Of a stretch of DNA of 64,000 nucleotides, positions 14,712-63,197 are shown one piece after another (positions within the stretch are counted from its first letter, which is position 1; the number at the start of each line of letters is the position of its first letter). The notes under the pieces are model-generated. The model was given only the letters and a program-made list of their open reading frames with translations. It did no database searches and had not been told where the DNA came from. The stretch lies in IMG/VR virus record IMGVR_UViG_3300025889_000075, positions 1 through 64,000 of that record. The stretch is one strand, 5' to 3'. Origin of the DNA: a virus. The position numbers and the translations under genes are program-made.

Positions 14712-14712
14712 A

Positions 14713-17384: not shown

Positions 17385-17385
17385 T

Positions 17386-19820: not shown

Positions 19821-19968
19821 GATTATTGAATTTCCCAAAAAACTTAATGTAATACAAAAACAAGCACAAGATATACTTGAAGAACTTAATGAGATTAATG
19901 AACAAGTTGACGAGATTAATCGTCAAACACAGATGATATTGGAAATGTTTGAGGATAATAATGAGTAA
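19813..19968 (+). CDS. small coiled-coil protein (51 aa)
   Basis: Not in track. MSKIIEFPKK...; overlaps both neighbours by 8 nt. Confidence 0.6.
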   Translation: MSKIIEFPKKLNVIQKQAQDILEELNEINEQVDEINRQTQMILEMFEDNNE

Positions 19969-23701: not shown

Positions 23702-23786
23702 GGGAGTGTAGGAAAATTGGTAACCCCATCGGACTGTAAATCCGACGCCGACGGCATTGATGGTTCAAGTCCATCCGCTCCCACCA
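23702..23786 (+). tRNA. tRNA-Tyr(GTA)
   Basis: Acceptor GGGAGTG/CGCTCCC, anticodon arm TCGGA-CTGTAAA-TCCGA, long variable arm, encoded CCA. Confidence 0.92.
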
Positions 23787-23802
23787 GTTTTAGAATGTGA
23801 TT

Positions 23803-23878
23803 GCCGCTATAGCTCAGCAGGTAGAGCAACTGATTTGTAATCAGTAGGTCCCGAGTTCGATTCTTGGTGGCGGCACCA
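23803..23878 (+). tRNA. tRNA-Thr(TGT)
   Basis: Canonical cloverleaf, ACTGA-TTTGTAA-TCAGT, CCA. Confidence 0.96.
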
Positions 23879-23880
23879 TT

Positions 23881-23957
23881 CGGAGTGTAGCGCAGTTTGG
23901 TAGCGCATCTGCTTTGGGAGCAGAGGGTCGGGGGTTCGAATCCCTCCACTCCGACCA
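23881..23957 (+). tRNA. tRNA-Pro(TGG)
   Basis: CGGAGTG acceptor, TCTGC-TTTGGGA-GCAGA, CCA. Confidence 0.96.
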
Positions 23958-42752: not shown

Positions 42753-43193
42753 ATGGCAACGAAAATATTCTCTCAAGAAGACGGTAATCTTGATGCAGCG
42801 TCAATCGTTGTAACTAGAGACATGATCTATAAGGATATAGATCTAAGTTTTAACAAGAGAACGACTGGCGACATCTATAAGAAGACTGAAGCAGCTGCTG
42901 TCAAACAAGCGATCAAAACGTTGATTTCTACTAATCGTTTTGATAAACCGTTTAATCCAGATTTTGGTGCTGATATTAGATCAATGCTTTTTGAGTTGGC
43001 AAACGAAAATTCTGGCACCGAAATCATAACGAGGATTAAAAACGCCATTCAAAAATATGAACCAAGAGCAGCGGCACAAGAAATTTCTGTTAAGGTATCT
43101 AATTATAATTCTATAGACGTTTCGATAATATTTCAGATATTGAATACAGACCAAATAATTACATATGAAACAACGGTTTCGAGGTTAGTTTAA
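42753..43193 (+). CDS. baseplate wedge gp25
   Basis: YKDIDLSF, AVKQAI, KPFNPDFG..I..LFE, YEPR. Confidence 0.92.
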   Translation: MATKIFSQEDGNLDAASIVVTRDMIYKDIDLSFNKRTTGDIYKKTEAAAVKQAIKTLISTNRFDKPFNPDFGADIRSMLFELANENSGTEIITRIKNAIQKYEPRAAAQEISVKVSNYNSIDVSIIFQILNTDQIITYETTVSRLV

Positions 43194-45073
43194 TGGCAAC
43201 GACAATTAAATCTACTGGATTAGATTTCGAATCAATCAAAAGTAATCTTAAAACATTTCTTGCTAGTAAAGAAGAATTTACCGATTACAATTTTGAAGCG
43301 TCTGGATTGTCTAACATCTTAGATGTTTTAGCATATAATACGCATTATAATGCATTAACAGCAAACTATGCGCTTAACGAATCATTTATCGGAACAGCAC
43401 AACTTCGAAGTTCTTTAGTTTCTTTATCTGAGGGGATTGGTTATATTCCTGATTCTAGAAAATCCGCCGTATCTAAAGTAAAATTAAATGTAAACCTTTC
43501 TGGGCAATCTAATCTACCGGCAAAACTTACAATTGCTTCTGGGTTTGTTTTTAATAGTATTATTGACGGTATCACATATAAATTTCAAACAGTAGCGCCT
43601 TTATCTGCAGTAAACAACGGAGCAGATATTTTCTTTTTCAAAACCGCTGATGGTATTGAAAACATAGATTTGAAAGAAGGCGTTGCCAAAACCAAAACGT
43701 TCATTGCCGGACCAGCAACGGAAAATGATGTGTATATTATTCCGGATAAAACATTAGATTTAACAACAGCAATTGTTAAAGTTTATGAAACCTCAGCGTC
43801 AACAACGTTTACTACCTATGAAAGTATTTTAACAGCAAGCGCGATTACAAGCGCGTCAACTCTTTATGTTTTAAAAGAATCGCCAAACGGATATTTTGAA
43901 TTAACTTTCGGAAACGGCACAACGTTAGGTAAGTCTCCGGTTGCTGGAAACAAAATTGTTGTCGAATATCTTTCCTCTTCTGGAGCAGATGCTAATAACG
44001 CTGATGTTTTTACTCCAGTAAATCAGTTTTCTTTCTCTAACAATTTGGGTTCAACGGTTAATGTTGACTTTAATGTTACTACTGTTAATAACTCTTCTGG
44101 TGGAACAGAGAAAGAATCAATAGAATCTATTAGGAAAAATGCACCGTTTCAATATGCAGCACAAAATAGAATGGTGACTGCTGCAGATTATTCATCATTA
44201 ATTTTAAGAAACTTTTCTAATTACATTAATGACATTAAAACTTGGGGTGGAGAAGATCACGACATCCCTGAGTTTGGTTCAGTTTATGTTTCTATTGATT
44301 TTATTTCTGGACTAGAAGCAGAAACAATTGCTTCAATTAAAAGAGATATTGTAGAACTCGCTGATCAATTATCAATAATTTCTTTCAAATTGAAATTCAA
44401 AGATCCTGTTAAGACTTACGTTAGTACAGACCTTGTATTCCAATTTAATCCTTCTTTGTCTACGCTTTCTTTAAACACAATTCAAGATAATGTCAGAACA
44501 ACAGTAGGAAATTATTTTGCAAACAGCGTAGGTAAATTTGAACAATCGTTCAGAAGATCAAATCTTTTAACGCTGGTTGATGCAGTAAGTCCTGCTGTTC
44601 TTTCTTCGCGTTCTGATGTTAAAATGCATCAAAGACTTATTCCACAAGTAATTACAACAAACGATGATAATACAACCACTACAACTTCTAAACTTGGAGT
44701 TGCTACTGATTACATAGTTCGTTATCCTGTTAATATTGATGCACCGGACGATGTTAACAACAAAATCACCTCATCAACTTTCACATATTTAAATAGAAGT
44801 TGTATATTAAGAAATAGATTAAGAACTAATATCATTGAGATTATAGATCTTTCAACGAACAAACCAATAATTGATAATATTGGATCTTACAACGTGGACG
44901 GGACATTAACCTTAATTGGATTTGCTCCCGAATCGATTGCTGGTGGTGTATCATTTATTAAGATATTTGCAGTTCCTGCTAATCAATCTGCTATTTCTCC
45001 GGTTCGTGACAGTATTTTACAATACGATGAACAAGAATCCTCGTTTAGAGGTAATGTTGTGAGTTCAACATAA
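43193..45073 (+). CDS. baseplate wedge gp6
   Basis: LDFESIK, FTDYNFE.SG, LAYNTHY, FG.G..GK.P, ESIESI..AP..AQNR.VT..DY. Confidence 0.93.
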   Translation: MATTIKSTGLDFESIKSNLKTFLASKEEFTDYNFEASGLSNILDVLAYNTHYNALTANYALNESFIGTAQLRSSLVSLSEGIGYIPDSRKSAVSKVKLNVNLSGQSNLPAKLTIASGFVFNSIIDGITYKFQTVAPLSAVNNGADIFFFKTADGIENIDLKEGVAKTKTFIAGPATENDVYIIPDKTLDLTTAIVKVYETSASTTFTTYESILTASAITSASTLYVLKESPNGYFELTFGNGTTLGKSPVAGNKIVVEYLSSSGADANNADVFTPVNQFSFSNNLGSTVNVDFNVTTVNNSSGGTEKESIESIRKNAPFQYAAQNRMVTAADYSSLILRNFSNYINDIKTWGGEDHDIPEFGSVYVSIDFISGLEAETIASIKRDIVELADQLSIISFKLKFKDPVKTYVSTDLVFQFNPSLSTLSLNTIQDNVRTTVGNYFANSVGKFEQSFRRSNLLTLVDAVSPAVLSSRSDVKMHQRLIPQVITTNDDNTTTTTSKLGVATDYIVRYPVNIDAPDDVNNKITSSTFTYLNRSCILRNRLRTNIIEIIDLSTNKPIIDNIGSYNVDGTLTLIGFAPESIAGGVSFIKIFAVPANQSAISPVRDSILQYDEQESSFRGNVVSST

Positions 45074-45074
45074 T

Positions 45075-46163
45075 ATGGCTCATAAAAATATACCAGACGT
45101 AAATAGAAGAGAACTTATATTTCGAGATCGTAGAATCTCAGAAATTCTTCCTGACTATTTTCCGAGCACGTATCCAAAACTAACTGCTCTGTTTGAGTAT
45201 TACTATGAGTTTCTTTTAGAAAACAACGCGTCGACGCAATTACTTGACCATTTGTATCAAACTCGTGATATTACTACGCTCGATGATACGCTTCTAACCT
45301 TCCTTGAAGACGAACTACTTTTAGGTCAAGCATACTTCGAAGGGTTTCAAGATAAAAGATCAGCTGCTAAATTTTCTAATACCCTGTATAGATCGAAAGG
45401 AAGTAAATATTCTATTCAACAATTCTTTAGAATGTTCTTTGGAATCGATCCTGAGATTCGTTATACAAAAGAAGATGTATTCACTCTTGGAAGTTCAAAG
45501 ATTGGTCCCAACGACGGTAAATTTTTAACTGATGACGAATTATATCAGACCTATGCAATCTTAGTTAAAACAGGATTGCCAATTTCAAAATGGAAAGATA
45601 TTTACAAATTGTTTGTACACCCTGCAGGATTTTATCTTGGTGCTCAAGTTTCTATTCTTGGTGAAGGGTTTTTTGGTAATCAAACACCACCGATAGGTCT
45701 GAAACAAATGCCGGATCCTGGGACTGCAGAGGTTCCAATTCCTATTTACGAAGGTTTGGCAGATCTCGGCATGATGTCCGCTACTTCGTTTATTGGTGAT
45801 AATTCTTACGCTGAAATAGATTCTACATATACTAATGGTATTGGCGCTATTCGTTATGATATTAATCGTTCAAGTATTAGAACGTTTGGTAGTAGTACAT
45901 TATATTTGCTAGACAAATCATATCCTTCATTGCTTAAAATGATTGATGGTTATGTTATTGCTGATACTACAAGTATATCTTATCCTGGCGTAACGCATGG
46001 ATTCGACGCTACTGCAGATAGTGCTTGGCAAATATCTTATCCAACCTTTGATAATGATTCTGCTTCTAGTAATGAGCAATTCGGAGGAAGGTTCGACTTC
46101 TCTCTTGACTCAGGGTTGGGATTGTTTGGTAAAGAAAGTTTAGTTCTTTTCAGTGACAACTAA
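45075..46163 (+). CDS. baseplate wedge protein (gp7-like)
   Basis: LP.YF, Y.SKGS..S..FFR.FFG, VHPAG. Confidence 0.75.
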   Translation: MAHKNIPDVNRRELIFRDRRISEILPDYFPSTYPKLTALFEYYYEFLLENNASTQLLDHLYQTRDITTLDDTLLTFLEDELLLGQAYFEGFQDKRSAAKFSNTLYRSKGSKYSIQQFFRMFFGIDPEIRYTKEDVFTLGSSKIGPNDGKFLTDDELYQTYAILVKTGLPISKWKDIYKLFVHPAGFYLGAQVSILGEGFFGNQTPPIGLKQMPDPGTAEVPIPIYEGLADLGMMSATSFIGDNSYAEIDSTYTNGIGAIRYDINRSSIRTFGSSTLYLLDKSYPSLLKMIDGYVIADTTSISYPGVTHGFDATADSAWQISYPTFDNDSASSNEQFGGRFDFSLDSGLGLFGKESLVLFSDN

Positions 46164-46171
46164 TATAAATA
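46164..46171 (+). promoter_or_regulatory. T4-type late promoter
   Basis: Intergenic TATAAATA. Confidence 0.85.
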
Positions 46172-46196
46172 AACAAGTATTAAATTGGGATAAAAA

Positions 46197-47195
46197 ATGA
46201 CCAGACAGATTATTAACACAGGTTCTTCCGCCAATGATGGAACAGGAGATACGCTGAGATCTGGTGCGAATAAGATCAATGCGAATTTCCAAGAAATTTA
46301 TGAGAAATTCGGAACCGCCGATGTATTATCTTCACGAGTAGAATTCGACAGTGATGAGATTCTAATACAAGGGGTATCTGGTTATAAGATTTCAATTGGC
46401 GTTCAGAACCCATCAACTAATTCGTTTACGGTAGTTCCTTATGACGCTGGAACAAATTTCTTTGTATTAGATTCTGCTACTCAGACTCTTAAGAATAAGA
46501 CGCTAGATTCTGCGACATTATTAACGCCTCTCATTGGTGATTTATCTGAAGATCATTTCTACAAGGTAAGAGGTTCAGAACTAGCAGCAGACAGAACGAT
46601 TACTTTGCCTTTGTTAACTGGAGATGATACTGTAGTTACTGAGGCGCATACTCAAACTCTGACTAATAAAACATTAGATTCTGCAGAATTAAATAATCCA
46701 AGCATTGAAGGATTTATTTTAAACGATGCTGGTAAGAATATGCTCTACCTTGATAACCAAGGTGGAACGATCGTTAATTACCTTTCAATTGGTAATGCGG
46801 TAACAGGTAACGATGTAGATATTATTCCTGCAGGAACTGATACTAATATTAATTTAAGATTGCGAGGTAAAGGCGATAAAGCAGTATTGTTTGGTCAGAA
46901 AGTTGCTTATGATGTTGATGCCAAAACAACCAGCGGCACTACTTACAGCGATAAACCATTAACAACACAAACGGTTAACAGCGGTGTATCAACTGGAACT
47001 TTACCGAACGGTACAATCGAAGGACAACAAAAATTCATCAGCAATAGAGGAAACTATAGAATCACGGTTTCGGGATCATTTAACGAAGGAACAAACCTAT
47101 TATTAGATTCTGCTATTGCTCATTTAATGTGGGACAATACATCAAGCGAATGGCGTTTGGTTAATAACGGACATCCAAATATTTCATTCAGTTAA
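46197..47195 (+). CDS. baseplate/tail-fibre connector (gp9/gp10-like N-terminus)
   Basis: IN.G..ANDGTGDTLR....KINANF.EIY; TQTLTNKTL repeats. Confidence 0.8.
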   Translation: MTRQIINTGSSANDGTGDTLRSGANKINANFQEIYEKFGTADVLSSRVEFDSDEILIQGVSGYKISIGVQNPSTNSFTVVPYDAGTNFFVLDSATQTLKNKTLDSATLLTPLIGDLSEDHFYKVRGSELAADRTITLPLLTGDDTVVTEAHTQTLTNKTLDSAELNNPSIEGFILNDAGKNMLYLDNQGGTIVNYLSIGNAVTGNDVDIIPAGTDTNINLRLRGKGDKAVLFGQKVAYDVDAKTTSGTTYSDKPLTTQTVNSGVSTGTLPNGTIEGQQKFISNRGNYRITVSGSFNEGTNLLLDSAIAHLMWDNTSSEWRLVNNGHPNISFS

Positions 47196-47224
47196 TTTGA
47201 CAGGATCAACGGAGAGAAGAACTA

Positions 47225-48610
47225 ATGACTGCAATTGTCACAAATACATTTAAACAGTTTATGCTGGATAAGATAAAGGCAGACTTCGAAGATTCTGCTA
47301 CAAACGCATATTACATGTGTATTGGTAGGTCTGAAGATTGGAACGCTCAAGACGCTGCTCCTTCATATGACATTAATGATGCTTTGTCATCTATTAGAAA
47401 TTCTAGAAATACTCGTTTAGCACTACAATCAGCAAAAGCAATTACAAACTTATCTTATGTTATTCCAAGATATGATTGGGTGGCAAATACAACTTATCCT
47501 TCTTATGATGATTCAATTGCGAATGTTCCAACGAACGGGTATTATGTTCTTACAGACGAAAACAACGTTTATATCTGTTTGCAACAGGGTAAAGATGGTG
47601 GTGGTGCTGCAGTTAGATCTACAATTAAACCAACGGGAACCACAACTAATCCACTTACTACTGCAGATGGTTATGTTTGGAAATTTATGTATAACATTAG
47701 CACAGGTGATGCTAACAAATATGTTTCAACTAATTTTATTCCCGTTTCTTTCGTTGACTCTGCCGTCTCTTATGTACAAGCAACAGAACAACAACAAAAA
47801 GGAATACAAGATAACGCATTAGCAATTCATCCAAAATCTATTGTAGGGTATGAGATTATTAACAACGGCGCAGGAACATATCCTGCAAGTACAACGCAAA
47901 CAGTTACTATTGTAGGAAACGGTTCTGGCGCACAGGCAACAGCAACAATAGACGCCAACGGAAATATAATTAAAGTCACTGTTGACGATAGTTCTGACGG
48001 AGACAAAAACTTCGGTAAAAATTATGATTATGCTAAAGCAACTGTTGGTGGCGGTGGTTCTGGATCTATTCGTCCAATATTCTCTCCTCTAAAAGGAATT
48101 GGTGGCGATCCAACAGTAGATCTTCGTGCTAATTCTATAATGTTCAACGTTAAAATGGAAGGTAACGAAACTAATACTATCTTAGCATCTAATGATTTTA
48201 GGCAAGTATCTTTGATTAGAAATCCTAAAACTCCTGCTGGCGCTGCTTTCTCAACAACAACTGGTTTGTTCTTGAAGAAGTTAGTATATTCGAATCTTTC
48301 CGGTGGTACTTTTTCGGAAGACGACATTGTAACAGGAGCAACTTCTGGTGCTAAGGGTTTTGTTGATTATAAAGGCGAAACAAATAAACTTTGGTATCAT
48401 CAAAACGATTCTACCGGATATACACCGTTTCAGGGTTCAGAAACTATTTCTAATGGTTCTGGTGTAACTGCTATTCTTCTTGGTTCTAATTTTGATTCTG
48501 CTGCTGACATAGATAAGTTTAGTGGCGATTTGCTGTATACTGATAACCGAGCAGCAATAGACAGAAACGCAGCACAAACTGAAGATCTTAAGATAGTAAT
48601 TAGATTCTAG
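47225..48610 (+). CDS. baseplate wedge gp8
   Basis: VIPRYDW, YYVLT...VYICL, DGYVWKFMY, SG.LLY.DNR....R...Q.ED.K.VI.F. Confidence 0.88.
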   Translation: MTAIVTNTFKQFMLDKIKADFEDSATNAYYMCIGRSEDWNAQDAAPSYDINDALSSIRNSRNTRLALQSAKAITNLSYVIPRYDWVANTTYPSYDDSIANVPTNGYYVLTDENNVYICLQQGKDGGGAAVRSTIKPTGTTTNPLTTADGYVWKFMYNISTGDANKYVSTNFIPVSFVDSAVSYVQATEQQQKGIQDNALAIHPKSIVGYEIINNGAGTYPASTTQTVTIVGNGSGAQATATIDANGNIIKVTVDDSSDGDKNFGKNYDYAKATVGGGGSGSIRPIFSPLKGIGGDPTVDLRANSIMFNVKMEGNETNTILASNDFRQVSLIRNPKTPAGAAFSTTTGLFLKKLVYSNLSGGTFSEDDIVTGATSGAKGFVDYKGETNKLWYHQNDSTGYTPFQGSETISNGSGVTAILLGSNFDSAADIDKFSGDLLYTDNRAAIDRNAAQTEDLKIVIRF

Positions 48611-48619
48611 GGATAAACT

Positions 48620-51600
48620 ATGCCTACAAATTATAATAAGAATTCCTTTTCATCAACCTACAAGGACGATTGGGCAAAGGAACGAGGTTATCATAAAGTT
48701 CTCTTTCATGGAGGTAGGGCACTCCAAGCAAGAGAACTTAATCAGATGCAATCCATTATTCAAGCAGAGATTGCTCGCCTTGGATCTAATTTATTCAAAG
48801 ACGGCGCTTTGGTTAATCCTGGTGGCGCTTCAATTAATAACGCTTACGAATATGTAAGATTAAATTCAGCTGGTGGTCAACCAACAGTATCACACATTGG
48901 AAAAACTTTAACGGGCGCAACGAGCGGTGTTAAGGCAACAGTTGTTCAATATGTTGCTCCACTTCCTGGCGGTAATGATCCAGCAACCTTTTATGTACAA
49001 TATACCGATGACGGCAATCAAACAGATACCTACAAAGCAATTCGTTTTACTGAAGGTGAAGTATTAACATCATCTGGTGGCGCTGGTTCAGTTACGGTAG
49101 AAAGTGCTGGCACAGATCCAAGGATTTATCCAGTTGGACCTGGTTGCTCTATTACGACAACAGAAGGTGATTTCTTTATCTCTGGTCATTTTGTTAATGT
49201 TCCTGGTCAGCAATTAATCCTTTCCAAGTATAGTCCAGCATTTACTGGTGAAGTTGGTTTCCGTTTAGTACAAGACATTGTTACAACATCTGACACAACA
49301 GCGTTGTATGATAATCAGGGTGGATCACCAAACCTTTCTTCTCCTGGGGCAGATCGTTATAGAATTCGATTGATTTTAACTAAGAAAGAACATGTAACTT
49401 CTACACAAACGTATGTACATCTCTGCAGTGTTCAAAACGGTCAAATTACTAAAATTGGAACTGGAACAGATTATCATAAGATCAATGACCTTTTAGCGAA
49501 AAGAACTTATGAAGAATCTGGAGACTATACAGTAAAACCATTTAAGATTAATTTTGAATATGTTGACTCAGCAATTACTGATGCATATTCTCTTAACGTT
49601 TCTCCAGGTGTTGCTTATGTTCGTGGTTATAGAGCAGAATCTCCTGGAAACGTAAAACTTTGGATTCCAAAACCAACGACGACTGAAACTGTTACAGACG
49701 AATATGTTCCTCTTTCTTATAGACAATATGTCTTAGTTAATGGAACAGCAGCTGACGGTAATCGTGGGTTACCGAGTTTGTATAGCACAGTCAATTTATA
49801 TGCTGGCGCTGGTGGAACATCTACAGTAATTGGGACTGCAGCAATCAGACAAATTGAAGCGGATGGTGATAATTATCGTTTGCATTTAATTAATTTATCT
49901 GGCGCGAGTTTAACTTCTGGAACTGGTTTCCGTGATGTTCTTAGTGTTGGTACTGGTACAACTGATTACTTTAATGTTGTACAAACAAATAGCGAATCTA
50001 AGATCATCGGCGATAATTATCGTCAATTTGTGTTCCCTCTTCCAAGACAAAGACCTTCAAGTTTTGGTACAGGCAATTCAGGAAACACTGATATTGTTTT
50101 TACAACACAAAGATTATTCTCCGGAACATCAAACGGTTCTGGACAATTGACAGTATCTGTTTCTGCTACTGGTGAATCTTTAACTGATACAACAAGTTGG
50201 ATTGTTTCTAGTGCTGATTCTGCAGTTAGGTCTTATTCTGTTTCAGGAACAAGCACCTCACAAACATTAACCGGATTGCTTCCAACAACAGCGTATGAAG
50301 TTTTGGCATATGTTCAAAAAGGAAATGGATTACAAAAAGATAAGACATTAACTTCTACCACTTCTACTGGAACTATCGCTGCGGATTCAGATCATTATCT
50401 TGGTCAACCAGACGTCTTTGATATTACTTCTATCAAGGACAGCGCAAACGGCGTTGACATTTCTAACAACTTCGTTTTAAATCGTCAGATCTTCGACGCC
50501 TATTACGGTGAAAGTCGTTTAGATAATTTGACCGGATATGCTGGTCCAGTTTATGCTGCGTTCAGATATTTCGCTCGTGGTGGTTCTGGAGACTTCTATT
50601 CAGTCAACTCTTACTCAGGAATCGATTACGGTAAAATCCCGTTCCATAAATTCAGACATATGCCTGATATGAACGCAAGAGATTTTATCGATTTCCGTCC
50701 AGACTATGTTAATGGATCTTACTCTAATACATTTGATCCACCGAAACAAGGAACAAATATTCTTTCTCCAGTAAGTTATTATCTGCCACGCGCTGATAAA
50801 CTTGTACTTGGTACTGATGGTATTCTTCAATATATTCGTGGTATTCCTGCTAAGGTGCCGTCATTTAAAAAGACGCCAGATGAATCTTTAGAACTTTATA
50901 AGATCATCATGAATGGTAATACCGTAAGCACGAAGGACATGAAAGTTACTCCAATCGAGCATAAGCATTATACCATGAAGGATATTAATGCGATTGAAAA
51001 GAAACTCGATCGTTTGGAAGAAGTTGTTTCTTTAAGTCTTCTTGAAGTTGAAACTAAAAACTTAAACATTCTTGATGGTTCAGGTAATGTTCGTACTAAG
51101 TCAGGTTTCTTTGTAGATAACTTTAGCGATCATGCATTATCTGATACTCGTTCACCAGAATACAGAGCAGCAATTGATCCGATTTCTAAACTTGTACGTC
51201 CTTCATTTAATCGTGAAAATATTCGTTTAATTAAAAACTCAGGACAATCTCGCGGAATTAAGTTTATTGGCGACGTTGCTATTTTGGATTATAACCAGAT
51301 TCTTTGGAACGAAGGTTCTAATGAAATAGCGTCACAATCTGAACCAGTTAATCCATTTATTGTTCCAAATTTCACAGGACAATTAACATTATCTCCTGCT
51401 TCTGATGATTGGAAAGTAACCGAGTTTGAACCAGACAAAGTTATCGATGGTGGTACAAGACTTGATCAAGTTGAAGCAACGGTTTGGAACGAAGAAGAAT
51501 GGGGATGGGCAGGTACTCCAGTTGATGAGTATGATGTTGGTGCTGAACTTTCTCGCACCACAACAGGGACTTCAGTTGGTGATCCAGCTGTAATTGCTGA

Positions 51601-54466: not shown

Positions 54467-54690
54467 TGAAATTACTTAAAATTGAAGACACAACTTCTTT
54501 CGCTAAAGATGCAGAAACGGGTGCAGTAGTCTCTATAAATAGAAATGATGCCGCGCTCGCGCGCGAGCGAAAGGAAAAAAGAAAACTCGAGCAGTTACAA
54601 CAAGAAGAACTCAACGATAAGGTTAAATCGTTAGAAACTAAAGTTGATCTGATTCAAGAAATGTTAACTAAGATATTAGAGAAAGTATAA
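54466..54690 (+). CDS. small coiled-coil hypothetical protein
   Basis: KD..TGAV..N motif; TAATG coupling on both sides. Confidence 0.75.
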   Translation: MKLLKIEDTTSFAKDAETGAVVSINRNDAALARERKEKRKLEQLQQEELNDKVKSLETKVDLIQEMLTKILEKV

Positions 54691-57260
54691 TGGCAGACCC
54701 TTACGGATACGGTAGACCAACAGATGTCGCATTAACTGATAGCATTAATACTTTTCGTAGAAAGGTTAATCAGATCGGCAACGATATTGGTAATAAATTA
54801 CGATTGGATTCTGGTGCAGATCCTCTTTGGGGATATGTTCCATCATTCCATAGTGATTCAGATCTAGTTGGCGCTCTTTTAGAACTTGATTATCGTATTC
54901 GAGAGCAAGACTCTGACCTTTATTTAAGAACAGATGGTGGCGACCTCTTTATCGTTAATGGGAAAAAAGGTAATGCTATCCACATGCAACTCACGTGGGA
55001 TAGTGCTGCTAATACTGTTGAACTCGATTTTCCTCGTCACACAGTTACTGTAGACGCCGCTGGGGATATTATTCTAGACGCAGACAATGGTAACATTATA
55101 TTCAAAGACGGTGGCACAGAGGACTACAAGTTTGCTACGGACGGTACAATCTCTCGTACTGGGGATTTAACAGTAGATGTAACTGGTAATATTGTTTTAG
55201 ACGCTGATGGTGCAAACATCGACTTTAAAGATGGTGGTGTTGCTCGTATCGAATACGGTCTTGGCGCTACTAATACAATAGCAACCACAGGTAATTTAGC
55301 GGAAACAGTTTCCGGAAATCAAACAACAGATGTTGTTGGATCGATTAAGGATTCCGCTGGTACAACGCACACAATTGTTGCTAAAACCGCTATTGCTCAA
55401 ACTTCAGGCACAACGTTTACCCAAACGTCAGGTGGCAATTTCACTACAAATGTTACAGGTAATGTTTTAATTGACGCCAGCGGCGATATCGTTTTAGATG
55501 CTGATGGCGCAGATATTGATTTTAAAGACGGTGGAACTACTCGTTTTGCATATGGTATGGGTGCCACAAATACATTAGACGTTACTGGTAATTTATCTGA
55601 AACTGTTTCGGGGAATCAAACTACAGATGTCACAGGATCAATCAAAGACTCCGCAGGAACGACGCACACAATTGTTGCAGGAACAGCAATTGTTCAGACA
55701 TCAGGTACAACAACTACGCTTACAGTTGGAAGCAACCACACTGTTAGCGTTGGTGGCAATTCTATTTCCACTGTTACTGGGAATTATACTAATGACGTAA
55801 CTGGATCGATTAAAGATTCTGCGGGCACTTCTCATACAACTGTTGCTGGTACTACAATTGCTCAAACTTCTGGGACAACATTCACACAAACTTCTGGCGG
55901 GAATTTCACCACGAATGTTACTGGAGAATATTTGGTTGATGCTTCTGGTGATATTACTTTAGATGCAAATGGTGGCAACATCTATCTGAAGGATGATGTA
56001 ACACAATTTGGCTCTCTCGCAAATACTGGTGGTGGCAATATTATAATTAAATCAGGCACCTCTACTGTTATGACTGGTAGTGGTGAAAACGCCACATTTA
56101 ATAATAATGTTGACATCGACAACGACCTTACTGTAGATCGAGATGCTCAGGTAACTCGTAATTTAAATGTAGATGGTATAACCACGCTTGATAGTACAAC
56201 AATCGATGGTTCCTTACTTGTTAATGATAGTGCATACATTACCGGTAACTTAGATGTTGGTGGAAATGTAACAGTAACAGGAAGCACTGTTCTTAACGGT
56301 CATGTTGATCTTGGTGACGGAATTGGAGATAATATTTCTATCGTAGGTAGAGTTGATACTAGTATTATTCCTGACGCCGACGGTTCATTAGATCTCGGTA
56401 GTTCTTCTTTAGAATGGCGTAATTTGTATATTGATGGAACTGCCAACATAGACTCATTAGTCGCTGACACTGCAGATATTAATGGTGGAACAATTGATGG
56501 AACTTCAATCGGTAGCAGCAGTCGATCAACTGGTTATTTTACTAATGTAGACGCTAATGGAATTACTACTCTTGATTCTACAACTATCGATGGTTCATTA
56601 ACTGTTAATGATAGCGCGTATGTAACTGGTAATCTGAACATTGGCGGTAACGTTGATATTGCTGGTACGCTAACAGTTGATGGCGTAGTTAATTTCAAAG
56701 CTGGAACAAACGGGTCGGTCACTCTCGGTGATGGAAACACAGACAACGTTGTGTTTAATGCTGATGTTAATTCACACATCATACCGAATACAGATAATAC
56801 CTATGATCTAGGTTCTAGCAGTCAAGAATGGCGTAATTTGTATGTTGATGGAATTGCTAACATTGATTCTTTGGTTGCTGATACTGCAGATATAAACGCT
56901 GGAACAATTGATGGAACTTCAATCGGCGCTAGTTCAGCGTCCACCGGTAACTTTACTACACTTAATGCTAGTGGAATTACTACTCTTGATTCTACAACTA
57001 TCGATGGTTCATTAGATCTAAACGGCGCTGCTGATATATCGGGTAATGTTGTTACTGGTGGAACATTAGTAACTGGAACATCATTAACTACTACAGCGAC
57101 TGATCATGCTGCTGCTATTAACGAATTAGATTCTGATATTGGTATAATTGCTAATATGACAACCACTACCAAGTTAAGTGTTATCGCTGCTATCAATGAA
57201 CTAAATAGTAGAATAATAGACGTTTATGACTCTGCTGGCACATTATTGAATCCAGCATAA
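54690..57260 (+). CDS. fibre protein with internal beta-repeats (whisker/tail fibre)
   Basis: GDI.LDADG..I.FKDGG, GSIKDSAGT.HT x3, DLGSSS.EWRNLY.DG.ANIDSL x2, AINEL. Confidence 0.8.
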   Translation: MADPYGYGRPTDVALTDSINTFRRKVNQIGNDIGNKLRLDSGADPLWGYVPSFHSDSDLVGALLELDYRIREQDSDLYLRTDGGDLFIVNGKKGNAIHMQLTWDSAANTVELDFPRHTVTVDAAGDIILDADNGNIIFKDGGTEDYKFATDGTISRTGDLTVDVTGNIVLDADGANIDFKDGGVARIEYGLGATNTIATTGNLAETVSGNQTTDVVGSIKDSAGTTHTIVAKTAIAQTSGTTFTQTSGGNFTTNVTGNVLIDASGDIVLDADGADIDFKDGGTTRFAYGMGATNTLDVTGNLSETVSGNQTTDVTGSIKDSAGTTHTIVAGTAIVQTSGTTTTLTVGSNHTVSVGGNSISTVTGNYTNDVTGSIKDSAGTSHTTVAGTTIAQTSGTTFTQTSGGNFTTNVTGEYLVDASGDITLDANGGNIYLKDDVTQFGSLANTGGGNIIIKSGTSTVMTGSGENATFNNNVDIDNDLTVDRDAQVTRNLNVDGITTLDSTTIDGSLLVNDSAYITGNLDVGGNVTVTGSTVLNGHVDLGDGIGDNISIVGRVDTSIIPDADGSLDLGSSSLEWRNLYIDGTANIDSLVADTADINGGTIDGTSIGSSSRSTGYFTNVDANGITTLDSTTIDGSLTVNDSAYVTGNLNIGGNVDIAGTLTVDGVVNFKAGTNGSVTLGDGNTDNVVFNADVNSHIIPNTDNTYDLGSSSQEWRNLYVDGIANIDSLVADTADINAGTIDGTSIGASSASTGNFTTLNASGITTLDSTTIDGSLDLNGAADISGNVVTGGTLVTGTSLTTTATDHAAAINELDSDIGIIANMTTTTKLSVIAAINELNSRIIDVYDSAGTLLNPA

Positions 57261-57273
57261 TTTGGAGTAAATA

Positions 57274-60200
57274 ATGGGTCGAGCATCCACCCCACTCAAA
57301 GTACTGTCGAATGGCGACCTAAGAGCGTTCACTGAAGAAGAAGAACGCTACCTTGCCTATGCAGCAGGTGTTCATGTATCACTGTTAGATAGTGATCAAG
57401 CTGGTGGTATTACTAGAGAACAAGATGGTGTAAATAATTTATCTCTCGGTCCTTTCATTGATTCAAAATACGATCAAGCAGTCGGCGCACATGTTAATCT
57501 TTCAAGTTCAACATCACAATATCCTTATTGGATTAAAGCAGGAACGCTCGACAAAACGAGCGAATCTTTTAGAAATTTAATTTCATGGGATTATTCTCTT
57601 AATGCCATAAAAGAAATGAACAATAACGACTTAACAGTATTAGGTCGTCGACTTTCTAAAACAATAGCACAAAATGAATACCCTGGATCTTATAGGATAG
57701 GATCTTCTAGTCCTGGATCTGATTGGACGATTTATAAACAAAATGCTTTCACTGACACCCGAACAGACGGAACTGCAACAAATTATAATATTTACATAAG
57801 AACAACTGGACAAACGTCTAATCCTCATTCAGGAAGAGTTTTACCCTCCGCGCTTAAACGGTCTTCAGGTGGATCAGGAACGTACCAAGGGTTTGAAAGA
57901 TTTTCTGATCAACAATTAAGTTATACATTGGGAGAAAAGGTAAAAGAACTTATTGCTGGTGGTGATATCGGTACGGTTCTTTTGCGTTCGACTGCTGATG
58001 GTGCTCCTTCATCAGGAACATGGGTTGCAAGAGGTTACGCTACCGATACAAGGCAAGAAGTTGGAGATACAGATTTCGTATCAACAAGTACGCCAACTTA
58101 TGTTGGAAATTTCCAAGCAGAATACCTCGGAGATTTCCAGGCAGAATATGCTTTAGAGGTCACATATGTAACAACCAGTTCAGGTATTATAACTCGAGAA
58201 TACAGTGGCGATTATACTGGTAATTTTGCGGGAGATTATACAACAGAATTTTTGGGTTCTCAGGGATATACTAATGATTTCGTTAGTTCATCAGAAATAT
58301 CATATACAAACGTATTCGTAGCAGATTTCGTTGGTTCAGCAGTAAAAGAGAAAAATGTAACCGAATCATATACTGGTGATTTTCTTGCTGATTTTATAGG
58401 AGATTATTTAGGTTCGACCAATAGAACCTCAGATTATACTGGAGATTTTTCTGGACAATTTACTGGAAATTATCTTGGCGACTTCCTATCATCAACTACT
58501 TTTGCGAGAACACGAACACAAACAGCATTAGAAAATTATACTGGCGATTTCCTTGGGAATTACACAGGATCAATAAATTACCTTGGATCAAATTCTGTTA
58601 GTTATATTGCAGACTATGTTAAAGTTTATATCGGAGATTTTCTATCGTCAGCCAATTTTACTAGCACAAGAGTAACTTATGCAGAAAATGAAGTCATTGA
58701 AGAATATACTGGTGATTTCATTGGTGATTACATAGGATCTATAAATGTTCTAAAAGATAACAGTGTAGGATATATTGCTGATTACATTGGTGATTATATT
58801 GGTGATTTTATAGGATCATTAAATGTTCAGAGAGATACCAGCGTAACTGATGAATCTGTTATGAGTTCAGCCAATATTACAGTACCTAGCGCAAATTATT
58901 TAAATTACGTTGGTGATTACATTGGTTCTGTTGATGATCATCCTTACACTATAACTTACATTGGTGATTTTTTAACGTCAACCGATTATACTAACACAAC
59001 ACAACACGTAACAAGCGTGAATTATATCGGCGCTGGTTCAACACAAGATGATGGAACCAAAGGGTATATTGGTGATTTCATTGGTGATTATATTGGACCG
59101 GATAACAAGTATCATATTAAAACTTTTGTTGAAGGGTACTTGAATTACGTTGGTGATTACATAGGATCAGTCGGTAAATCTTATATTGGAACGCCAAGTA
59201 CAGATTATGCTAACTACATAGGCGATCCTTACGTTGCTAATTTCGTTGGTCAAACTACTTATACTGGGACTAGCTATACTGTATTATCTCCTCAAATAAT
59301 TGGTGTCGGCGCGCAAGTTAATGGCACCGGATGGGGTGATGGATCAACTTACATTAATTCACAAACAGCTCAGTCTTCTATAAGCGTACCAATTCAGCTT
59401 CAAATTGCAATTTCTGGAACTACTAGTCCAGTTGCAGGCGTCCCAGGAAACACATATAAATGTACTTTTAATTCTTCAGCGTCCAGTGGTGTTACTGTCC
59501 TAGGTATGACACCCAACAGTAATATATCACCGAATAGATTTAATACGCTTGATTCATGGACAATCAACGGAAACCAAAGCGTTTATTTTCCTCAAGCGAA
59601 TTCGATTTATACCTTTCCTGGAATATCTTATGTAAACGTTAATATAATACTCAATTCTGAAGGTTCGGGAAAACTTGTTTTAAATGTTACCAATTCTACT
59701 GGTAGTACAATTTATAGAAAATCACAATTAAATACAAATGGAACTGCTCCATCTGTGTATAGTACGCAAAACTATACTCCTGATTTTCAGGCTGATTTAA
59801 CATATACTCCAAATTATTTGGGAACAAGTCAAATTAATTATCTTAATGATTTTGTAGAAGGATATGTACCATATCATAGTCCATTTCTTGGTAGTGCTGT
59901 AGATTATTCAGAACAGGGACCGTATGCACATGCATATACGCCAGATTACATTACTGGATATACTGGTTCTACCAGCGTAGATTATCTTGGATCATTAACT
60001 GTTCAGACAAACAACAGCGTAACATACACATCAGATTATCAAGTTAATTATCTTGGTGATTATACTGGACAGGTGGAGTATACTGGTGATTTCGTGGCGA
60101 ACTATACTGAACCGTTCATTCACAATTACATTGGTGATTTTATAACGTCAACTTCATATGAAAGTATAGCGGAGGAGAATTATATACGTTATGCGAATCC

Positions 60201-60969
60201 TTATATCTTTACTTATGTGGGTGATTTTTTAACGTCAACCGAATATAGTATCACAAGGGTAACTATAGACTATGAACCATATACTGGTGATTTTCTTGGG
60301 GATTACACAGGATCTGTAACAAGAAACACATCAACCAGCGTCAATTATCAAAATTATTTAGAACCATATATCGTTAATTATGTTGGCGACTTTTTATCAT
60401 CAACTACTTTTACTAGTACGAAAATACCCGATGCTTTTGTGGGTGATTATTTGGGTGACTTCGTTGGGGATTATACTGGATCAATTCAATATGTTGGTAC
60501 AGCATTAGAAGATTATGCTGCAGAATATCTTAATACCTTTGTTGCTGACTACATAAGCAGTGCAGAGCAACAAAAAAATAGAACCAGTACAACAACCGAT
60601 GGATTTACTGGTGATTATATCGGAGGTTTTCTAGGATCTGTCAATAGTACGGTATCTGTATCAAAATCATTTGCAGGAACATACACAGGAAATTATACTT
60701 CAGACTATGTTAGTTCTGCTCAATACACAGAAACATATACGACTGATTCAACTGATAATTTTGTTACTGCATATACTGGAGATTTCGGCGCTGCTTATAC
60801 GGGAGATTATACAGGGTCATTAATTTACACGACGCTATATACTTCTGAAAGCACAGAAGATTATGCTTCAACTAGCACTGCAAGTTATACTGGGGAATTT
60901 GCGGCAACAACAATTTTACAAACAAATGAAGTGGTTGAAACTTATACATTATACGTGAGGATAGCATGA
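57274..60969 (+). CDS. Tyr/Thr/Gly/Asp-rich repetitive fibre-like protein
   Basis: Dozens of (Y/F)xG(D/N) tetrapeptide repeats on both sides of a central non-repetitive domain. Confidence 0.75.
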   Translation: MGRASTPLKVLSNGDLRAFTEEEERYLAYAAGVHVSLLDSDQAGGITREQDGVNNLSLGPFIDSKYDQAVGAHVNLSSSTSQYPYWIKAGTLDKTSESFRNLISWDYSLNAIKEMNNNDLTVLGRRLSKTIAQNEYPGSYRIGSSSPGSDWTIYKQNAFTDTRTDGTATNYNIYIRTTGQTSNPHSGRVLPSALKRSSGGSGTYQGFERFSDQQLSYTLGEKVKELIAGGDIGTVLLRSTADGAPSSGTWVARGYATDTRQEVGDTDFVSTSTPTYVGNFQAEYLGDFQAEYALEVTYVTTSSGIITREYSGDYTGNFAGDYTTEFLGSQGYTNDFVSSSEISYTNVFVADFVGSAVKEKNVTESYTGDFLADFIGDYLGSTNRTSDYTGDFSGQFTGNYLGDFLSSTTFARTRTQTALENYTGDFLGNYTGSINYLGSNSVSYIADYVKVYIGDFLSSANFTSTRVTYAENEVIEEYTGDFIGDYIGSINVLKDNSVGYIADYIGDYIGDFIGSLNVQRDTSVTDESVMSSANITVPSANYLNYVGDYIGSVDDHPYTITYIGDFLTSTDYTNTTQHVTSVNYIGAGSTQDDGTKGYIGDFIGDYIGPDNKYHIKTFVEGYLNYVGDYIGSVGKSYIGTPSTDYANYIGDPYVANFVGQTTYTGTSYTVLSPQIIGVGAQVNGTGWGDGSTYINSQTAQSSISVPIQLQIAISGTTSPVAGVPGNTYKCTFNSSASSGVTVLGMTPNSNISPNRFNTLDSWTINGNQSVYFPQANSIYTFPGISYVNVNIILNSEGSGKLVLNVTNSTGSTIYRKSQLNTNGTAPSVYSTQNYTPDFQADLTYTPNYLGTSQINYLNDFVEGYVPYHSPFLGSAVDYSEQGPYAHAYTPDYITGYTGSTSVDYLGSLTVQTNNSVTYTSDYQVNYLGDYTGQVEYTGDFVANYTEPFIHNYIGDFITSTSYESIAEENYIRYANPYIFTYVGDFLTSTEYSITRVTIDYEPYTGDFLGDYTGSVTRNTSTSVNYQNYLEPYIVNYVGDFLSSTTFTSTKIPDAFVGDYLGDFVGDYTGSIQYVGTALEDYAAEYLNTFVADYISSAEQQKNRTSTTTDGFTGDYIGGFLGSVNSTVSVSKSFAGTYTGNYTSDYVSSAQYTETYTTDSTDNFVTAYTGDFGAAYTGDYTGSLIYTTLYTSESTEDYASTSTASYTGEFAATTILQTNEVVETYTLYVRIA

Positions 60970-61409
60970 ATGAATTATATTTGCCTAATGCATTTTGGAC
61001 TAATTGGGAAAAGAAAGGTGAAGACAAGTCGAGTATAACTGCTTTAAAAAGAATTGATTCCAATTCAACAATTCAAATTACAACGAACGAAGGTCAAGAA
61101 GATTATAACAATTTGATTTCTCAATTATCTTTGAGTAAAATAACTGAGAACACTGTTATACGTTTTAATAAGAAACAAAGGGAAAAGGCAGAAAAAGATC
61201 TTATTAAAGAACAAAGAGATAAATCTAAAATGCTTGAAGAACTTTTTTCTTTTAAACTTAAAGTATTTGAAACAGAATCGGTTAAAAATTCTGAGAATAA
61301 AAAAATTAAGTCTAAGATCAGAAAAGCAAAGTCTCAAATAGAAGCACAAGCATTAACTACATTATTGATTGGCATTGAAGAAGGTATTATTGATGAGCGA
61401 GCTAACTAA
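60966..61409 (+). CDS. hypothetical protein (possible fibre chaperone)
   Basis: LF.FKL..FE...VKNS..K.KIRKAKS; coupled to the fibre gene. Confidence 0.65.
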   Translation: MNELYLPNAFWTNWEKKGEDKSSITALKRIDSNSTIQITTNEGQEDYNNLISQLSLSKITENTVIRFNKKQREKAEKDLIKEQRDKSKMLEELFSFKLKVFETESVKNSENKKIKSKIRKAKSQIEAQALTTLLIGIEEGIIDERAN

Positions 61410-62121
61410 AGGTTACATTGTTATTGCATCGAATAAGAAATTTTTTTACAAATCTGGTCTTTATTTGATAGAATCAATTAAAGATTATTACCCAGAAGCA
61501 AAATGTTGCTTGGTTACAGAAGAAAGATTTCTTGATGGAAATGAAAGTATAGTTGATGATCTTTTATTATGTGATGATCATTTGCGCGCGAAAATGGACG
61601 GCATGGCGAGATCCCCATATGATCTAACATTTTACATTGACGCTGATTGTGAAGTTGTACATGAAGACATAGCAAATGTTTTTGATGAGTTGGGTGATTA
61701 TGATGTGATGTTTACTGAATTGACCGACGATAGGAAATACTGTTTTAAAGAAGTTCATTTTCCTGCTGGTCAATTAAGACTTTGTGGTGGTGTTTGTTTA
61801 TATGATTTAAGTAGACCGATCGTTAAAGAATTTATGAAAGATTGGTATGATTTAACGGTCAAACAATATGCTAAACTTTGGTGGCCGACAAAAGAAAATG
61901 GCGAATATGATTATGATAATTATCCTAAAACATTAGCAAGATGGGATCAGTTTAGTCTTTGGTGGTTAGTTAATAAAGAACCAAAGTATAAAGATTTGAA
62001 AGTTGGTATTTTTGACGATGATGCTAGATGGAATCACTACTCAAAATATAAAATGCAACATTGTAGAAAACCAATTGTTATTAATCATTATTCGGATAGC
62101 AGCGTAAAAAAATCAGTTTAA
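61393..62121 (+). CDS. GT-A glycosyltransferase (GT8-like)
   Basis: SPYDLTFYIDAD, CGGV, WDQFSLW, RWN, INHY; start at ATG 61393. Confidence 0.75.
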   Translation: MSELTKGYIVIASNKKFFYKSGLYLIESIKDYYPEAKCCLVTEERFLDGNESIVDDLLLCDDHLRAKMDGMARSPYDLTFYIDADCEVVHEDIANVFDELGDYDVMFTELTDDRKYCFKEVHFPAGQLRLCGGVCLYDLSRPIVKEFMKDWYDLTVKQYAKLWWPTKENGEYDYDNYPKTLARWDQFSLWWLVNKEPKYKDLKVGIFDDDARWNHYSKYKMQHCRKPIVINHYSDSSVKKSV

Positions 62122-62122
62122 T

Positions 62123-62791
62123 ATGCAAAAAATTGAAATTGAAAATGAAGAGGTTTTAAATAATCTAAAACCTTTTGAATGGTTTGTTAACCAAACAGTT
62201 TGTGATTTAATTATTAGAGATGAAAAAAGTTTCTCTTGTAATAGAAACGATTATGTGTCAATTCCATACATGCAAAAAATAATGCGCATGGGAAAAGACC
62301 ATAATGGATTTCCTGAAAGAGTCAAAGGGTACAGTTTTAATGGCGTAGGATTGAAATTTAAAAATGCCTCTGATCCTTTAGTTTCAGAAATGATGAATCG
62401 TTATAACGAAAACATTTTTAATTTCTCTTCTTCTCTAATGTTAAGGCATAATGCATTATTTACTGTTTATCCTCCTGGGGGTTTTATTTCATGGCATAAT
62501 AATGCAAATGCATCCGCTTATAATTTTATTTTTACATGGTCTGAAACAGGCAATGGTTATTGGCAAAATTATGACATGGAAGAACAAAAAGTGGTAACGA
62601 TAAATGATAAACCAGGTTGGCAATGTAAATCTGGTTATTTTGGGTCGTACAATGAGAATCCAAATAAAATAGTTTACCACTCTGCATCAACCGATTGTTG
62701 GAGAATGACAGTTGCATTCGTCCTTGATCGGTCAGAAATGTCTAAGGGAATTCAAGATTTAATTATCGAAGAATTGTCTTTTACAGAATAG
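62123..62791 (+). CDS. 2OG-Fe(II) oxygenase-like protein
   Basis: YPPGGFISWHNN, distal YHSA, WRMTVAF; HxN in place of HxD. Confidence 0.6.
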   Translation: MQKIEIENEEVLNNLKPFEWFVNQTVCDLIIRDEKSFSCNRNDYVSIPYMQKIMRMGKDHNGFPERVKGYSFNGVGLKFKNASDPLVSEMMNRYNENIFNFSSSLMLRHNALFTVYPPGGFISWHNNANASAYNFIFTWSETGNGYWQNYDMEEQKVVTINDKPGWQCKSGYFGSYNENPNKIVYHSASTDCWRMTVAFVLDRSEMSKGIQDLIIEELSFTE

Positions 62792-62797
62792 AATCAT

Positions 62798-62805
62798 TAT
62801 AAATA
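62798..62805 (+). promoter_or_regulatory. T4-type late promoter
   Basis: Intergenic TATAAATA. Confidence 0.85.
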
Positions 62806-62840
62806 AAAACGATTGTTGATCTTATTTCGGATTCGTTTTT

Positions 62841-63197
62841 ATGGCTCATTACGAAGATATTACCATCGACCAAGGTTCTGATGTATCACTAGAACTACAC
62901 TTGGTCGACACTCAAGGCGATAAGAAGAACCTAACAGGTTTTTCTGCAGCTGCAAAAATGAAAGTCAATTATAACAGCGATAGTGCAGACACGGTAACGT
63001 TTGACACATATATTGCTGCTCCTGCTACAGACGGTATTGTTGTTTTGAATTTGACAAACGCACAAACCGATCTATTGAATCCGAGAAAAAAATACGTTTA
63101 TGATGTTGAAGTTTCACATCTCGATAGTGATAGCAATACGATTATTGAGAGAGTGTTACAGGGAACTATAACAGTAACTCCATCAGTAACGAAATAG
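62841..63197 (+). CDS. conserved small virion/fibre-associated beta protein
   Basis: IDQG.D, NLTG, L.LT..QT, YVYDVE, RVLQG.ITV.P.VT. Confidence 0.75.
   Translation: MAHYEDITIDQGSDVSLELHLVDTQGDKKNLTGFSAAAKMKVNYNSDSADTVTFDTYIAAPATDGIVVLNLTNAQTDLLNPRKKYVYDVEVSHLDSDSNTIIERVLQGTITVTPSVTK

Follow-up and report, generated by a model that had tools for sequence, protein, structure and literature searches.

A short Asp-Ser-(Ala/Asp) motif enriched in outer baseplate proteins and fibres of uncultured marine T4-like phages, with serine modification as a possible function

Introduction

The virions of mycobacteriophages are reportedly glycosylated by glycosyltransferases that the phages themselves encode, with the capsid and the tail tube as the targets that Freeman et al. 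are said to have found in 2023. Here we describe a tripeptide, Asp-Ser-Ala (DSA), that is strongly over-represented in four outer baseplate proteins and a fibre encoded at positions 45075-57260 of a 64,000-nucleotide stretch of viral DNA (hereafter the window), the first 64 kb of a single 155,131-base IMG/VR record (IMGVR_UViG_3300025889_000075, here G000; CheckV completeness 89%) of an uncultured marine T4-like myovirus. An earlier note, made from the window's letters and open reading frames (ORFs), had proposed Asp-Ser as the recognition tag of the phage's own soluble glycosyltransferases. The enrichment is real, specific, clade-wide and tag-like: in this phage and in most of its relatives D-S-(A/D) is about eight times commoner in the outer baseplate and fibre proteins than chance predicts. 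We tentatively read it, at somewhat less than an even chance, as a tag that directs the modification of serines on the outer virion, with O-glycosylation by soluble phage enzymes as the most probable kind.

The likeness to the mycobacteriophage systems is that the phage encodes its own glycosyltransferases, here four of family GT25, which in mycobacteriophages act on the phage's own structural proteins in the cytoplasm. The differences are that capsid, tube and sheath show no motif enrichment here and the motif is carried instead by the outer baseplate and fibres, that transferase families and hosts are other ones, and that glycosylation in the present system is a prediction from genes.

As for the motif, a comparable sequence serves as acceptor in staphylococci, where SdgB and SdgA O-GlcNAcylate Ser-Asp repeat adhesins (PMC3794999, PMC8561734); SdgB, a soluble bacterial transferase, glycosylates the free tripeptide DSD in vitro (PMC8561734). 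Both cases combine an Asp beside the Ser with a small or acidic neighbour on surface-exposed adhesive targets. The phage motifs, in contrast, occur one at a time, scattered over the loops of folded proteins or set at intervals along extended repeats, with no tandem (SD)n tract and with DS far outnumbering SD, their commonest third residue is Ala, and the phage transferases belong to GT25 (GT-A), whereas SdgB and SdgA are GT-B enzymes (GT4) with a DUF1975 insert. The 155-kb G000 genome has no match to Glycos_transf_1 (PF00534), which 14 of 14 control genomes match, in a search that covered this family and not DUF1975 itself.

The general O-glycosylation sequon of Bacteroidota, D-(S/T)-(A/I/L/V/M/T) (PMC8550257), is likewise a three-residue tag with Asp first, a hydroxyl residue second and then Ala, and DSA fits it. 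In genomic layout G000 matches the host recognition cluster of pelagimyophages and cyanomyophages (PMC7029224), in which a VrlC/DUF4815 gene precedes a long stretch of variable fibre genes and in which cassettes of glycosyltransferases and radical SAM enzymes are found; there the 'LPS-related' (lipopolysaccharide-related) transferases are assigned to the host O-chain and no virion-protein motif is described, and the cultured pelagimyophage Mosig shows no enrichment. Family GT25 itself includes a soluble protein O-galactosyltransferase of collagen, GLT25D1 (PMC2877668, PMC3244457, PMC12987934), which adds sugar to a hydroxyl group on a protein side chain. The substrate of GLT25D1 is not serine but the hydroxylysine of Gly-X-Lys repeats, and bacterial GT25 members are lipo-oligosaccharide transferases.

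DSA enrichment in outer baseplate and fibre proteins

The five proteins are encoded consecutively on the + strand, and four significant Pfam matches place the first four among T4-like outer baseplate families. They are a gp7-like baseplate wedge protein of 362 amino acids (aa; 45075-46163; Baseplate_wedge, PF23786, E 1.7e-11), a gp9/gp10-like baseplate protein of 332 aa (46197-47195; T4_gp9_10_N, PF07880, E 1.7e-9), a gp8-like baseplate wedge protein of 461 aa (47225-48610; Phage-Gp8, PF09215, E 1.6e-11) and a giant baseplate-associated DUF4815 (VrlC-like) protein of 1948 aa (48620-54466; PF16075, E 7e-58). The fifth, an 856-aa fibre (54690-57260), matches no Pfam family, and a PDB sequence search with it gave only marginal hits, weakly like the gp5 beta-helix. 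The gene order gp6, gp7-like, gp9-like, gp8-like and DUF4815 is kept in relatives.

With expected counts taken from each protein's own composition, DSA occurs twice in the gp7-like protein (residues 315 and 328; 0.14 expected), four times in the gp9-like protein (92, 104, 161 and 304; 0.12 expected), three times in the gp8-like protein (23, 178 and 424; 0.28 expected), four times in the DUF4815 protein, in contexts that all differ (316, 533, 607 and 1644; 0.78 expected), and seven times in the 856-aa fibre (104, 221, 320, 376, 513, 641 and 847). Together this makes 20 DSA in 3959 aa against 1.92 expected, the strongest outlier of all tripeptides (Poisson p 3e-14), with AGT second at 3e-7. The gp8-like protein has further DS sites as DSI (96), DSS (255) and DST (395). 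Residue order is asymmetric, with 39 DS against 15 SD in the five proteins (binomial p 0.0015) and 17 against 4 in the 856-aa fibre, which has three DSD, and DSA is absent from every ORF before 38.9 kb. The earlier note had counted by hand about 20 DSA in ~3,960 aa with the same split among the five proteins, had estimated about 2 from composition, had seen none in the non-structural proteins of the first 30 kb and had placed three of the four SD of the fibre inside DSD; its counts were all reproduced, and the three DSD of the fibre are in line with the last remark.

Some of the sites are copies within repeats. In the 856-aa fibre, residues 221, 320 and 376 share the repeat GSIK-DSA-GT and residues 513 and 641 a second one, VN-DSA-Y, so that three of its seven sites are copies and four contexts are independent; in the gp9-like protein residues 104 and 161 fall within a TQTLxNKTL-DSA repeat, leaving three contexts from four sites. 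Once internal repeats are collapsed, 16 independent DSA contexts remain against the same 1.92 expected (p 2.6e-10, or 2e-6 corrected for 8000 tripeptides). None of 20,000 residue shuffles, a comparison that the earlier note had put forward, reached 16, and the maximum was 10. The codons vary as well: Asp is GAT or GAC, Ser is TCT, TCA, TCC, AGT or AGC, and Ala uses all four. Because serine codons of both the TCN and AGY types are mixed with differing Asp and Ala codons, the signal lies at the level of protein and not of a DNA word.

An artefactual origin of the excess, from amino-acid composition, internal repeats or a DNA word, is therefore scarcely credible. Four of the 20 sites are indeed repeat copies, as are most of the 77 sites in a giant fibre beyond the window; against this stand the 16 independent sites, the shuffles, the mixed codons, and an excess that recurs in about 50 related contigs and is absent from the homologues of other lineages. 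The mixed codons rule out a DNA-level word as the cause. The 16 contexts, spread over five proteins, likewise rule out repeats as the sole cause, as the earlier note had argued from the recurrence of the motif in unrelated proteins.

Extent of the signal in the genome

The enrichment continues past the window. In G000 the region 45075-97102 holds 116 DSA against 12.4 expected, and the rest of the genome holds 4 against 8.4; within the outer region DSD stands at 2.6 times expectation and DTA at 0.63 times. The largest contribution comes from a 2855-aa fibre (G000 66129-74696) with 77 DSA and with 116 DS against 11 SD, its DSA falling in repeats of the type LDSAxVxxLIDSAYIQAR. Other virion proteins differ. 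The 626-aa gp6-like inner baseplate protein just upstream (43193-45073, + strand) has no DS[ADS] against 1.04 expected, sheath, tube, portal, scaffold and terminase are not enriched either, and the capsid has 2 DS[ADS] against 0.47 expected. An internal negative control is provided by the 1231-aa fibre encoded next to the 856-aa fibre (57274-60969, + strand), with no DSA against 0.50 expected, 4 DS and 6 SD. Outside the outer region the low DSA ratio (0.48 times) is no evidence of avoidance, since the permuted tripeptides ASD and SDA are equally low (0.48-0.60 times).

Two further observations concern the fibre region. An 855-aa fibre, which begins at 63501 in the window and runs on to G000 66068, has 13 DS against 4 SD and no DSA; the residue after DS is T, V, D, G, S, E, I or N, another flavour of DS bias. 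At the far end, between an array of paralogues at 78-92 kb and the neck genes (G000 92689-94883), lie a sulfotransferase (PF13469, PF00685), of which no relative examined has a homologue, and a protein of 451 aa with a 2OG-Fe(II) oxygenase domain at its C-terminus, whose ORF has only a weak 35% match in one relative (G009).

The paralogues at 78-92 kb share a conserved YDSAGxLPTADS in their N-terminal anchors, and a 118-aa protein that resembles a tail-fibre assembly protein (62841-63197, + strand; phrog_3304, 'L-shaped tail fiber protein assembly', E 4e-16) itself carries three motifs, one DSA and two DSD. Both facts would suit a docking motif, each copy of which would be a point of attachment for something bound non-covalently, be it a chaperone of assembly, a decoration protein or the anchors of receptor-binding paralogues. 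We consider this improbable, since three residues with free flanks are short for specific protein binding and no candidate binder was identified, the idea not having been followed further.

Residue specificity in related phages

For comparison, 106 related loci were taken from IMG/VR with the gp8-like and gp6-like proteins as queries; most of these records are fragments, the motif-free complete genomes are outgroups, and contrasts between genes and motif are confounded by phylogeny. In about 50 loci the gp7-, gp9- and gp8-like and DUF4815 proteins, with fibre homologues where present, hold DSA at 4-15 times expectation, and some gp8-like proteins have 8 DSA against 0.4 expected. The gp6 proteins of the motif-rich relatives have 2 against 10.8. 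The ratio is near 1 in a minority of loci (L010/11, L039, L045, L049 and L093) and in a distant cyanophage-like IMG/VR group. GenBank phages come no closer in the gp8-like protein than 31-32% identity, in phage C48C1 and Pelagibacter phage Mosig; neither of these is enriched in the part of its baseplate region that was read, nor is cyanophage S-PRM1 in its whole genome, so that among these nearest cultured or complete phages no cultured model with the motif was found.

Pooling the motif-rich relatives gives a sharp residue profile. DSA (observed/expected 7.1) and DSD (6.4) stand out, followed by DSS (2.7) and DSG (1.6), and DS with I, L, V, F, K, Q or R at the third position falls to 0.1-0.3 (DSI 0.3, DSL 0.2, DSV 0.2), with DSM at 0, DSE at 0.4 and DST at 0.8. 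Changes at the other positions remove the signal too: DTA stands at 0.6, ESA at 0.3 and NSA at 1.0, and no DT-x tripeptide reaches 2.2. The motif is thus D-S-[A/D, with S weaker], from which Thr, Glu and a bulky third residue are excluded. Over 264 distinct contexts the flanks are nearly free, with only weak preferences for L or F at -2 and G at +3. D-S-D, the acceptor of SdgB-type enzymes, is enriched among relatives, and the main form in G000 is DSA, which enzymes of this type are not known to accept (PMC8561734); in some lineages DSD takes the place of DSA: the IIDSAYIQ fibre repeat of G000 reads IIDSDYIQ in G021.

This profile bears on the Bacteroidota sequon, to which the earlier note had pointed. 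Modification by a Bacteroidota host's own general O-glycosylation system, which DSA alone would fit, is very improbable and in our view ruled out by residue profile and host lead together: a Thr in second place or an I, L, V, M or T at +1 brings no enrichment or even depletion, an Asp at +1 does bring enrichment, and the host is likely gammaproteobacterial. The Bacteroidota system acts on exported proteins outside the cytoplasm, and T4-like tails assemble in the cytoplasm. The host lead comes from one of three tRNA genes in the window (Tyr-GTA, Thr-TGT and Pro-TGG, 23702-23957), the tRNA-Thr at 23803-23878, all 76 of whose bases agree with tRNA genes in seven marine Pseudomonadales/Gammaproteobacteria metagenome-assembled genomes; this exact match points to a marine gammaproteobacterium as host, as a lead and not as proof. 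A search of the G000 genome for CsgG (curli), a pelagimyophage marker, was negative.

Retention and turnover of the motif

Among orthologues of the gp7-, gp9- and gp8-like proteins at 55-92% identity, 72% of motifs are kept, against 41-44% for control tripeptides. At 30-60% identity the exact motif column is kept in only 9-12%, partly through register shift within loops. In gp8-like proteins different lineages have gained motifs in different loops, and 49 alignment columns hold D-S-[A/D] in any homologue. Loss can be wholesale: in the L045 lineage DS is replaced at every site carried by its 50%-identical relatives, and L039 has lost part of its sites. Short-term retention, long-term turnover and loss of all sites at once are as expected of a tag that is read by a trans-acting factor. 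On these sequence comparisons the pattern would not be expected of residues that each fold needs.

Location of the motif in structural models

Modelled by AlphaFold from 45 homologues (mean predicted local distance difference test, pLDDT, 89.9), the gp8-like protein has the motif mostly in loops. Across the 45 proteins 131 of 150 motif instances (87%) lie in loops or insertions, against a loop background of 52%, and 40 of the 49 motif columns fall in loops or lineage-specific insertions. The columns cluster in about eight loops, with none at a helix start. Two of the three DSA of the G000 protein lie wholly outside helix and strand, and the third, at 424, is at a two-residue strand between loops. 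The mapping on predicted structures that the earlier note had proposed therefore favours a loop location in the gp8-like protein, with solvent exposure of the loops read from the secondary structure of the model only. In the gp9-like protein DSA304 forms a hairpin turn that joins strands 298-303 and 307-313 in a C-terminal domain that is modelled well; the monomer model is poor at residues 80-200, and three of the four DSA sites cannot be placed on it. The region that the monomer model cannot fold contains a repeated TQTLTNKTL-x-x-P, conserved in the protein and its homologues, and probably forms an interwoven trimer.

The giant fibre presents a different picture, one that counts against a tag read by an enzyme. 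There the motif heads regular short repeats (IDSAYIQAR-type) at a fixed place, position 1 admits D, S, N or T and nothing else, and Ala stands second in 8 of 38 copies. D, S, N and T are the classical helix N-cap set, so helix capping is plausible in these repeats, where a structural role would be enough. A role without any enzyme, in which D-S followed by a small residue is a turn-forming, helix-capping or cation-binding element that stabilises exposed loops and fibre repeats and is favoured in some lineages by environment or host surface, also gains from the use of DSD for DSA in the same fibre repeat of G021 and from the failure to find a tracking enzyme, and Asp and Ser are common cation ligands. 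We regard it as unlikely, though with a substantial residual chance. Helix capping as a general explanation fits the giant-fibre repeats and fails in the gp8-like protein, in which no motif site precedes a helix. A general preference for turns or caps would moreover admit Thr, Asn and Glu, and DTA, ESA and DSE are depleted; homologous folds in related phages manage without the motif. That many unrelated folds carry it at once, and that L045 lost all its sites together, indicates a shared outside factor.

A possible tag for serine modification

The reading that we prefer, a modification tag, would run as follows. D-S-[A/D], less often D-S-S, would be a short tag on exposed loops of the outer baseplate and on fibre repeats, maintained by selection since a trans-acting phage factor reads it. 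The reader would most likely be a soluble cytoplasmic enzyme that acts on the hydroxyl group of the serine while the tail is being assembled or earlier, and the likeliest chemistry would be O-glycosylation with nucleotide sugars from the phage's own island at 7.6-20.7 kb, giving a modified coat over the baseplate periphery and the fibres. Extended to the clade, the proposal is that in a widespread group of uncultured marine T4-like phages the outer baseplate and the fibres receive a coat from a phage-encoded system in the cytoplasm, which modifies the serine of D-S-(A/D), probably with sugar, at positions that drift between loops as do the glycan-shield sequons of animal-virus glycoproteins; this wider statement we offer as possible and rather doubtful.

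Marine T4-like phages carry large sugar-handling islands whose purpose is usually ascribed to a change of the host surface, and the proposal, if true, would make the virus particle itself a different target, through a serine tag restricted to those virion parts that are in contact with host and surroundings. A modified tag would amount to a new protein-modification sequon and would give the 'LPS-like' sugar islands of marine phages another, new role. It could bear on which hosts a phage infects, on how it adsorbs and how stable it is in seawater, and on whether defence systems or grazers recognise it, and modified virions could then be picked out of metagenomes by a simple mark in their sequence. 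Should the tag be unmodified, a strict D-S-small rule in the loops of unrelated folds is still to be explained.

The island (7644-20680, + strand, by Pfam and NCBIfam hits) combines sugar activation with glycosyl transfer. Four of its genes, all on the + strand, pass the Pfam GT25 cut-off (9434-10009, 16015-16695, 17832-18533 and 18530-19177), and a genome-wide GT25 scan of G000 returned these four over cut-off. Also on the + strand are a fusion of a beta-phosphoglucomutase-like HAD domain with a sugar-1-phosphate nucleotidyltransferase (12041-13420), which from its domains would convert sugar phosphate to nucleotide sugar in one protein, a radical SAM/SPASM enzyme (8470-9447; Pfam and NCBIfam), a cupin (17386-17835) and two methyltransferase-like ORFs (13417-14103 and 15458-16018); most of the remaining ORFs of the island gave no match in Pfam, PHROGs or NCBIfam. 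The GT25 genes together with the fusion indicate a phage able to make and transfer activated sugars, and the genes of the island are candidate readers of the motif.

The earlier note had counted a gene at 61.4 kb among the soluble glycosyltransferases too. Its assignment stands for the four GT25 genes, and the 61.4-kb gene has no profile hit, only a language-model lead. It belongs to a three-gene cassette behind the DSA-free 1231-aa fibre (60966-62791, + strand), none of whose products has a Pfam, PHROG or NCBIfam hit: a 147-aa ORF, a 250-aa GT-A-like candidate (61369-62121, + strand) with an ESM Atlas lead to Nucleotid_trans/GT8-like clusters, and a 222-aa protein (62123-62791, + strand) with weak fold-level similarity (template-modelling score, TM, 0.5-0.7) to 2OG-FeII_Oxy and Phage_tail_APC clusters of the ESM Atlas. 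In relatives, the motif-poor G019 and G026 included, the cassette follows homologues of the same DSA-free fibre. As a motif reader the 61.4-kb gene was rejected on these grounds.

To find a gene that tracks the motif, 25 related contigs were searched for GT25, and relatives were then also sought from the GT25 side, with a mixed result. Nine GT25-positive records (G000, G009, G008, G033, G029, G030, G034, G036 and G032) have motif-rich or moderately enriched baseplates.

A number of observations weigh against a modification tag read by an island enzyme, beside the fixed repeat positions in the giant fibre. Three GT25-positive records (G026, G027 and G021) are motif-poor in their gp8-like and DUF4815 proteins. 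Nearly complete among them is G026 (IMGVR_UViG_3300030390_000715; 152,753 bases, 91% complete; loci L249-L256), which holds homologues of all four GT25 genes, of the radical SAM gene and of ORFs 7644, 10862, 19143 and 19949, and which shows no enrichment in its gp8-like, DUF4815, gp7-like and gp6 proteins; DS-rich proteins are there limited to a few small ones of the fibres, such as one of 306 aa with 5 DSA. Conversely, G001 and G002 are DSD-rich (30 against 8.9 expected) with no GT25 in ~94 kb and with a syntenic island made up of radical SAM enzymes, and S-PRM1 has many annotated glycosyltransferases, with a weak GT25-like match only, and is motif-poor genome-wide. No gene that tracks the motif was found in the relatives compared, which are mostly fragmentary records. 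The island lacks the late-promoter word TATAAATA, which precedes structural genes, and published work takes such phage glycosyltransferase genes as modifiers of host O antigen (PMC7029224). Finally, it is from sequence that we infer the modification of the DS serines, the existence of a reader, its being an enzyme, its chemistry as glycosylation and the gene that encodes it. What stood of the earlier note's central claim is the tag: carried by unrelated outer proteins, located in loops, retained in close relatives, renewed at other positions in distant ones and absent from inner and head proteins. Its link to glycosyltransferases did not fare as well, given the motif-poor G026, the GT25-free G001 and G002 and the unenriched S-PRM1.

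Two observations stand beside this comparison. The G000 ORFs from 10002 to 17835, the fusion included and 10862-11647 excepted, have no homologue in the otherwise syntenic island of G026. Among GenBank phages, Mosig and C48C1, motif-poor in the baseplate regions read, gave no hit in a search of phage records with one GT25 of the window, and only 7 GenBank phage records have weak GT25-like matches.

The tag could also be read by a phage enzyme other than a glycosyltransferase, with the radical SAM/SPASM enzyme, the sulfotransferase near 92.7 kb and some kinase or transferase that escaped recognition as candidates, so that the serine would be oxidised, cross-linked, sulfated or phosphorylated. 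Enzymes of the SPASM type include protein and peptide maturases, and homologues of the radical SAM gene occur in G009, G021, G026 and the GT25-free, DSD-rich G001. In G001 (IMGVR_UViG_3300023292_000010; L115 8678-17053) the sugar island gives way to a block of four to five radical SAM enzymes, of which one is B12-binding and several have SPASM domains, and Pfam found no glycosyltransferase among the tested ORFs of this block. The sulfotransferase and the 2OG oxygenase at the end of the fibre region point the same way. We nonetheless hold a non-glycosyltransferase reader to be decidedly unlikely: the radical SAM gene is also present in G026 with its motif-poor baseplate, its NCBIfam matches are all far below curated cut-offs and it may act on sugar, and the sulfotransferase lacks homologues in the relatives examined.

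Genome setting and late-promoter words

Past the baseplate block the G000 genome continues with genes for neck, gp15, terminase, sheath, tube, portal, scaffold and gp23. The window contains seven TATAAATA words, all on the + strand, at 29679, 34776, 42716, 46164, 54534, 62798 and 63341, a total no higher than chance. Their placement is striking: at least six of the seven lie within ~160 bases upstream of structural or late genes, which is the pattern of T4-type late promoters.

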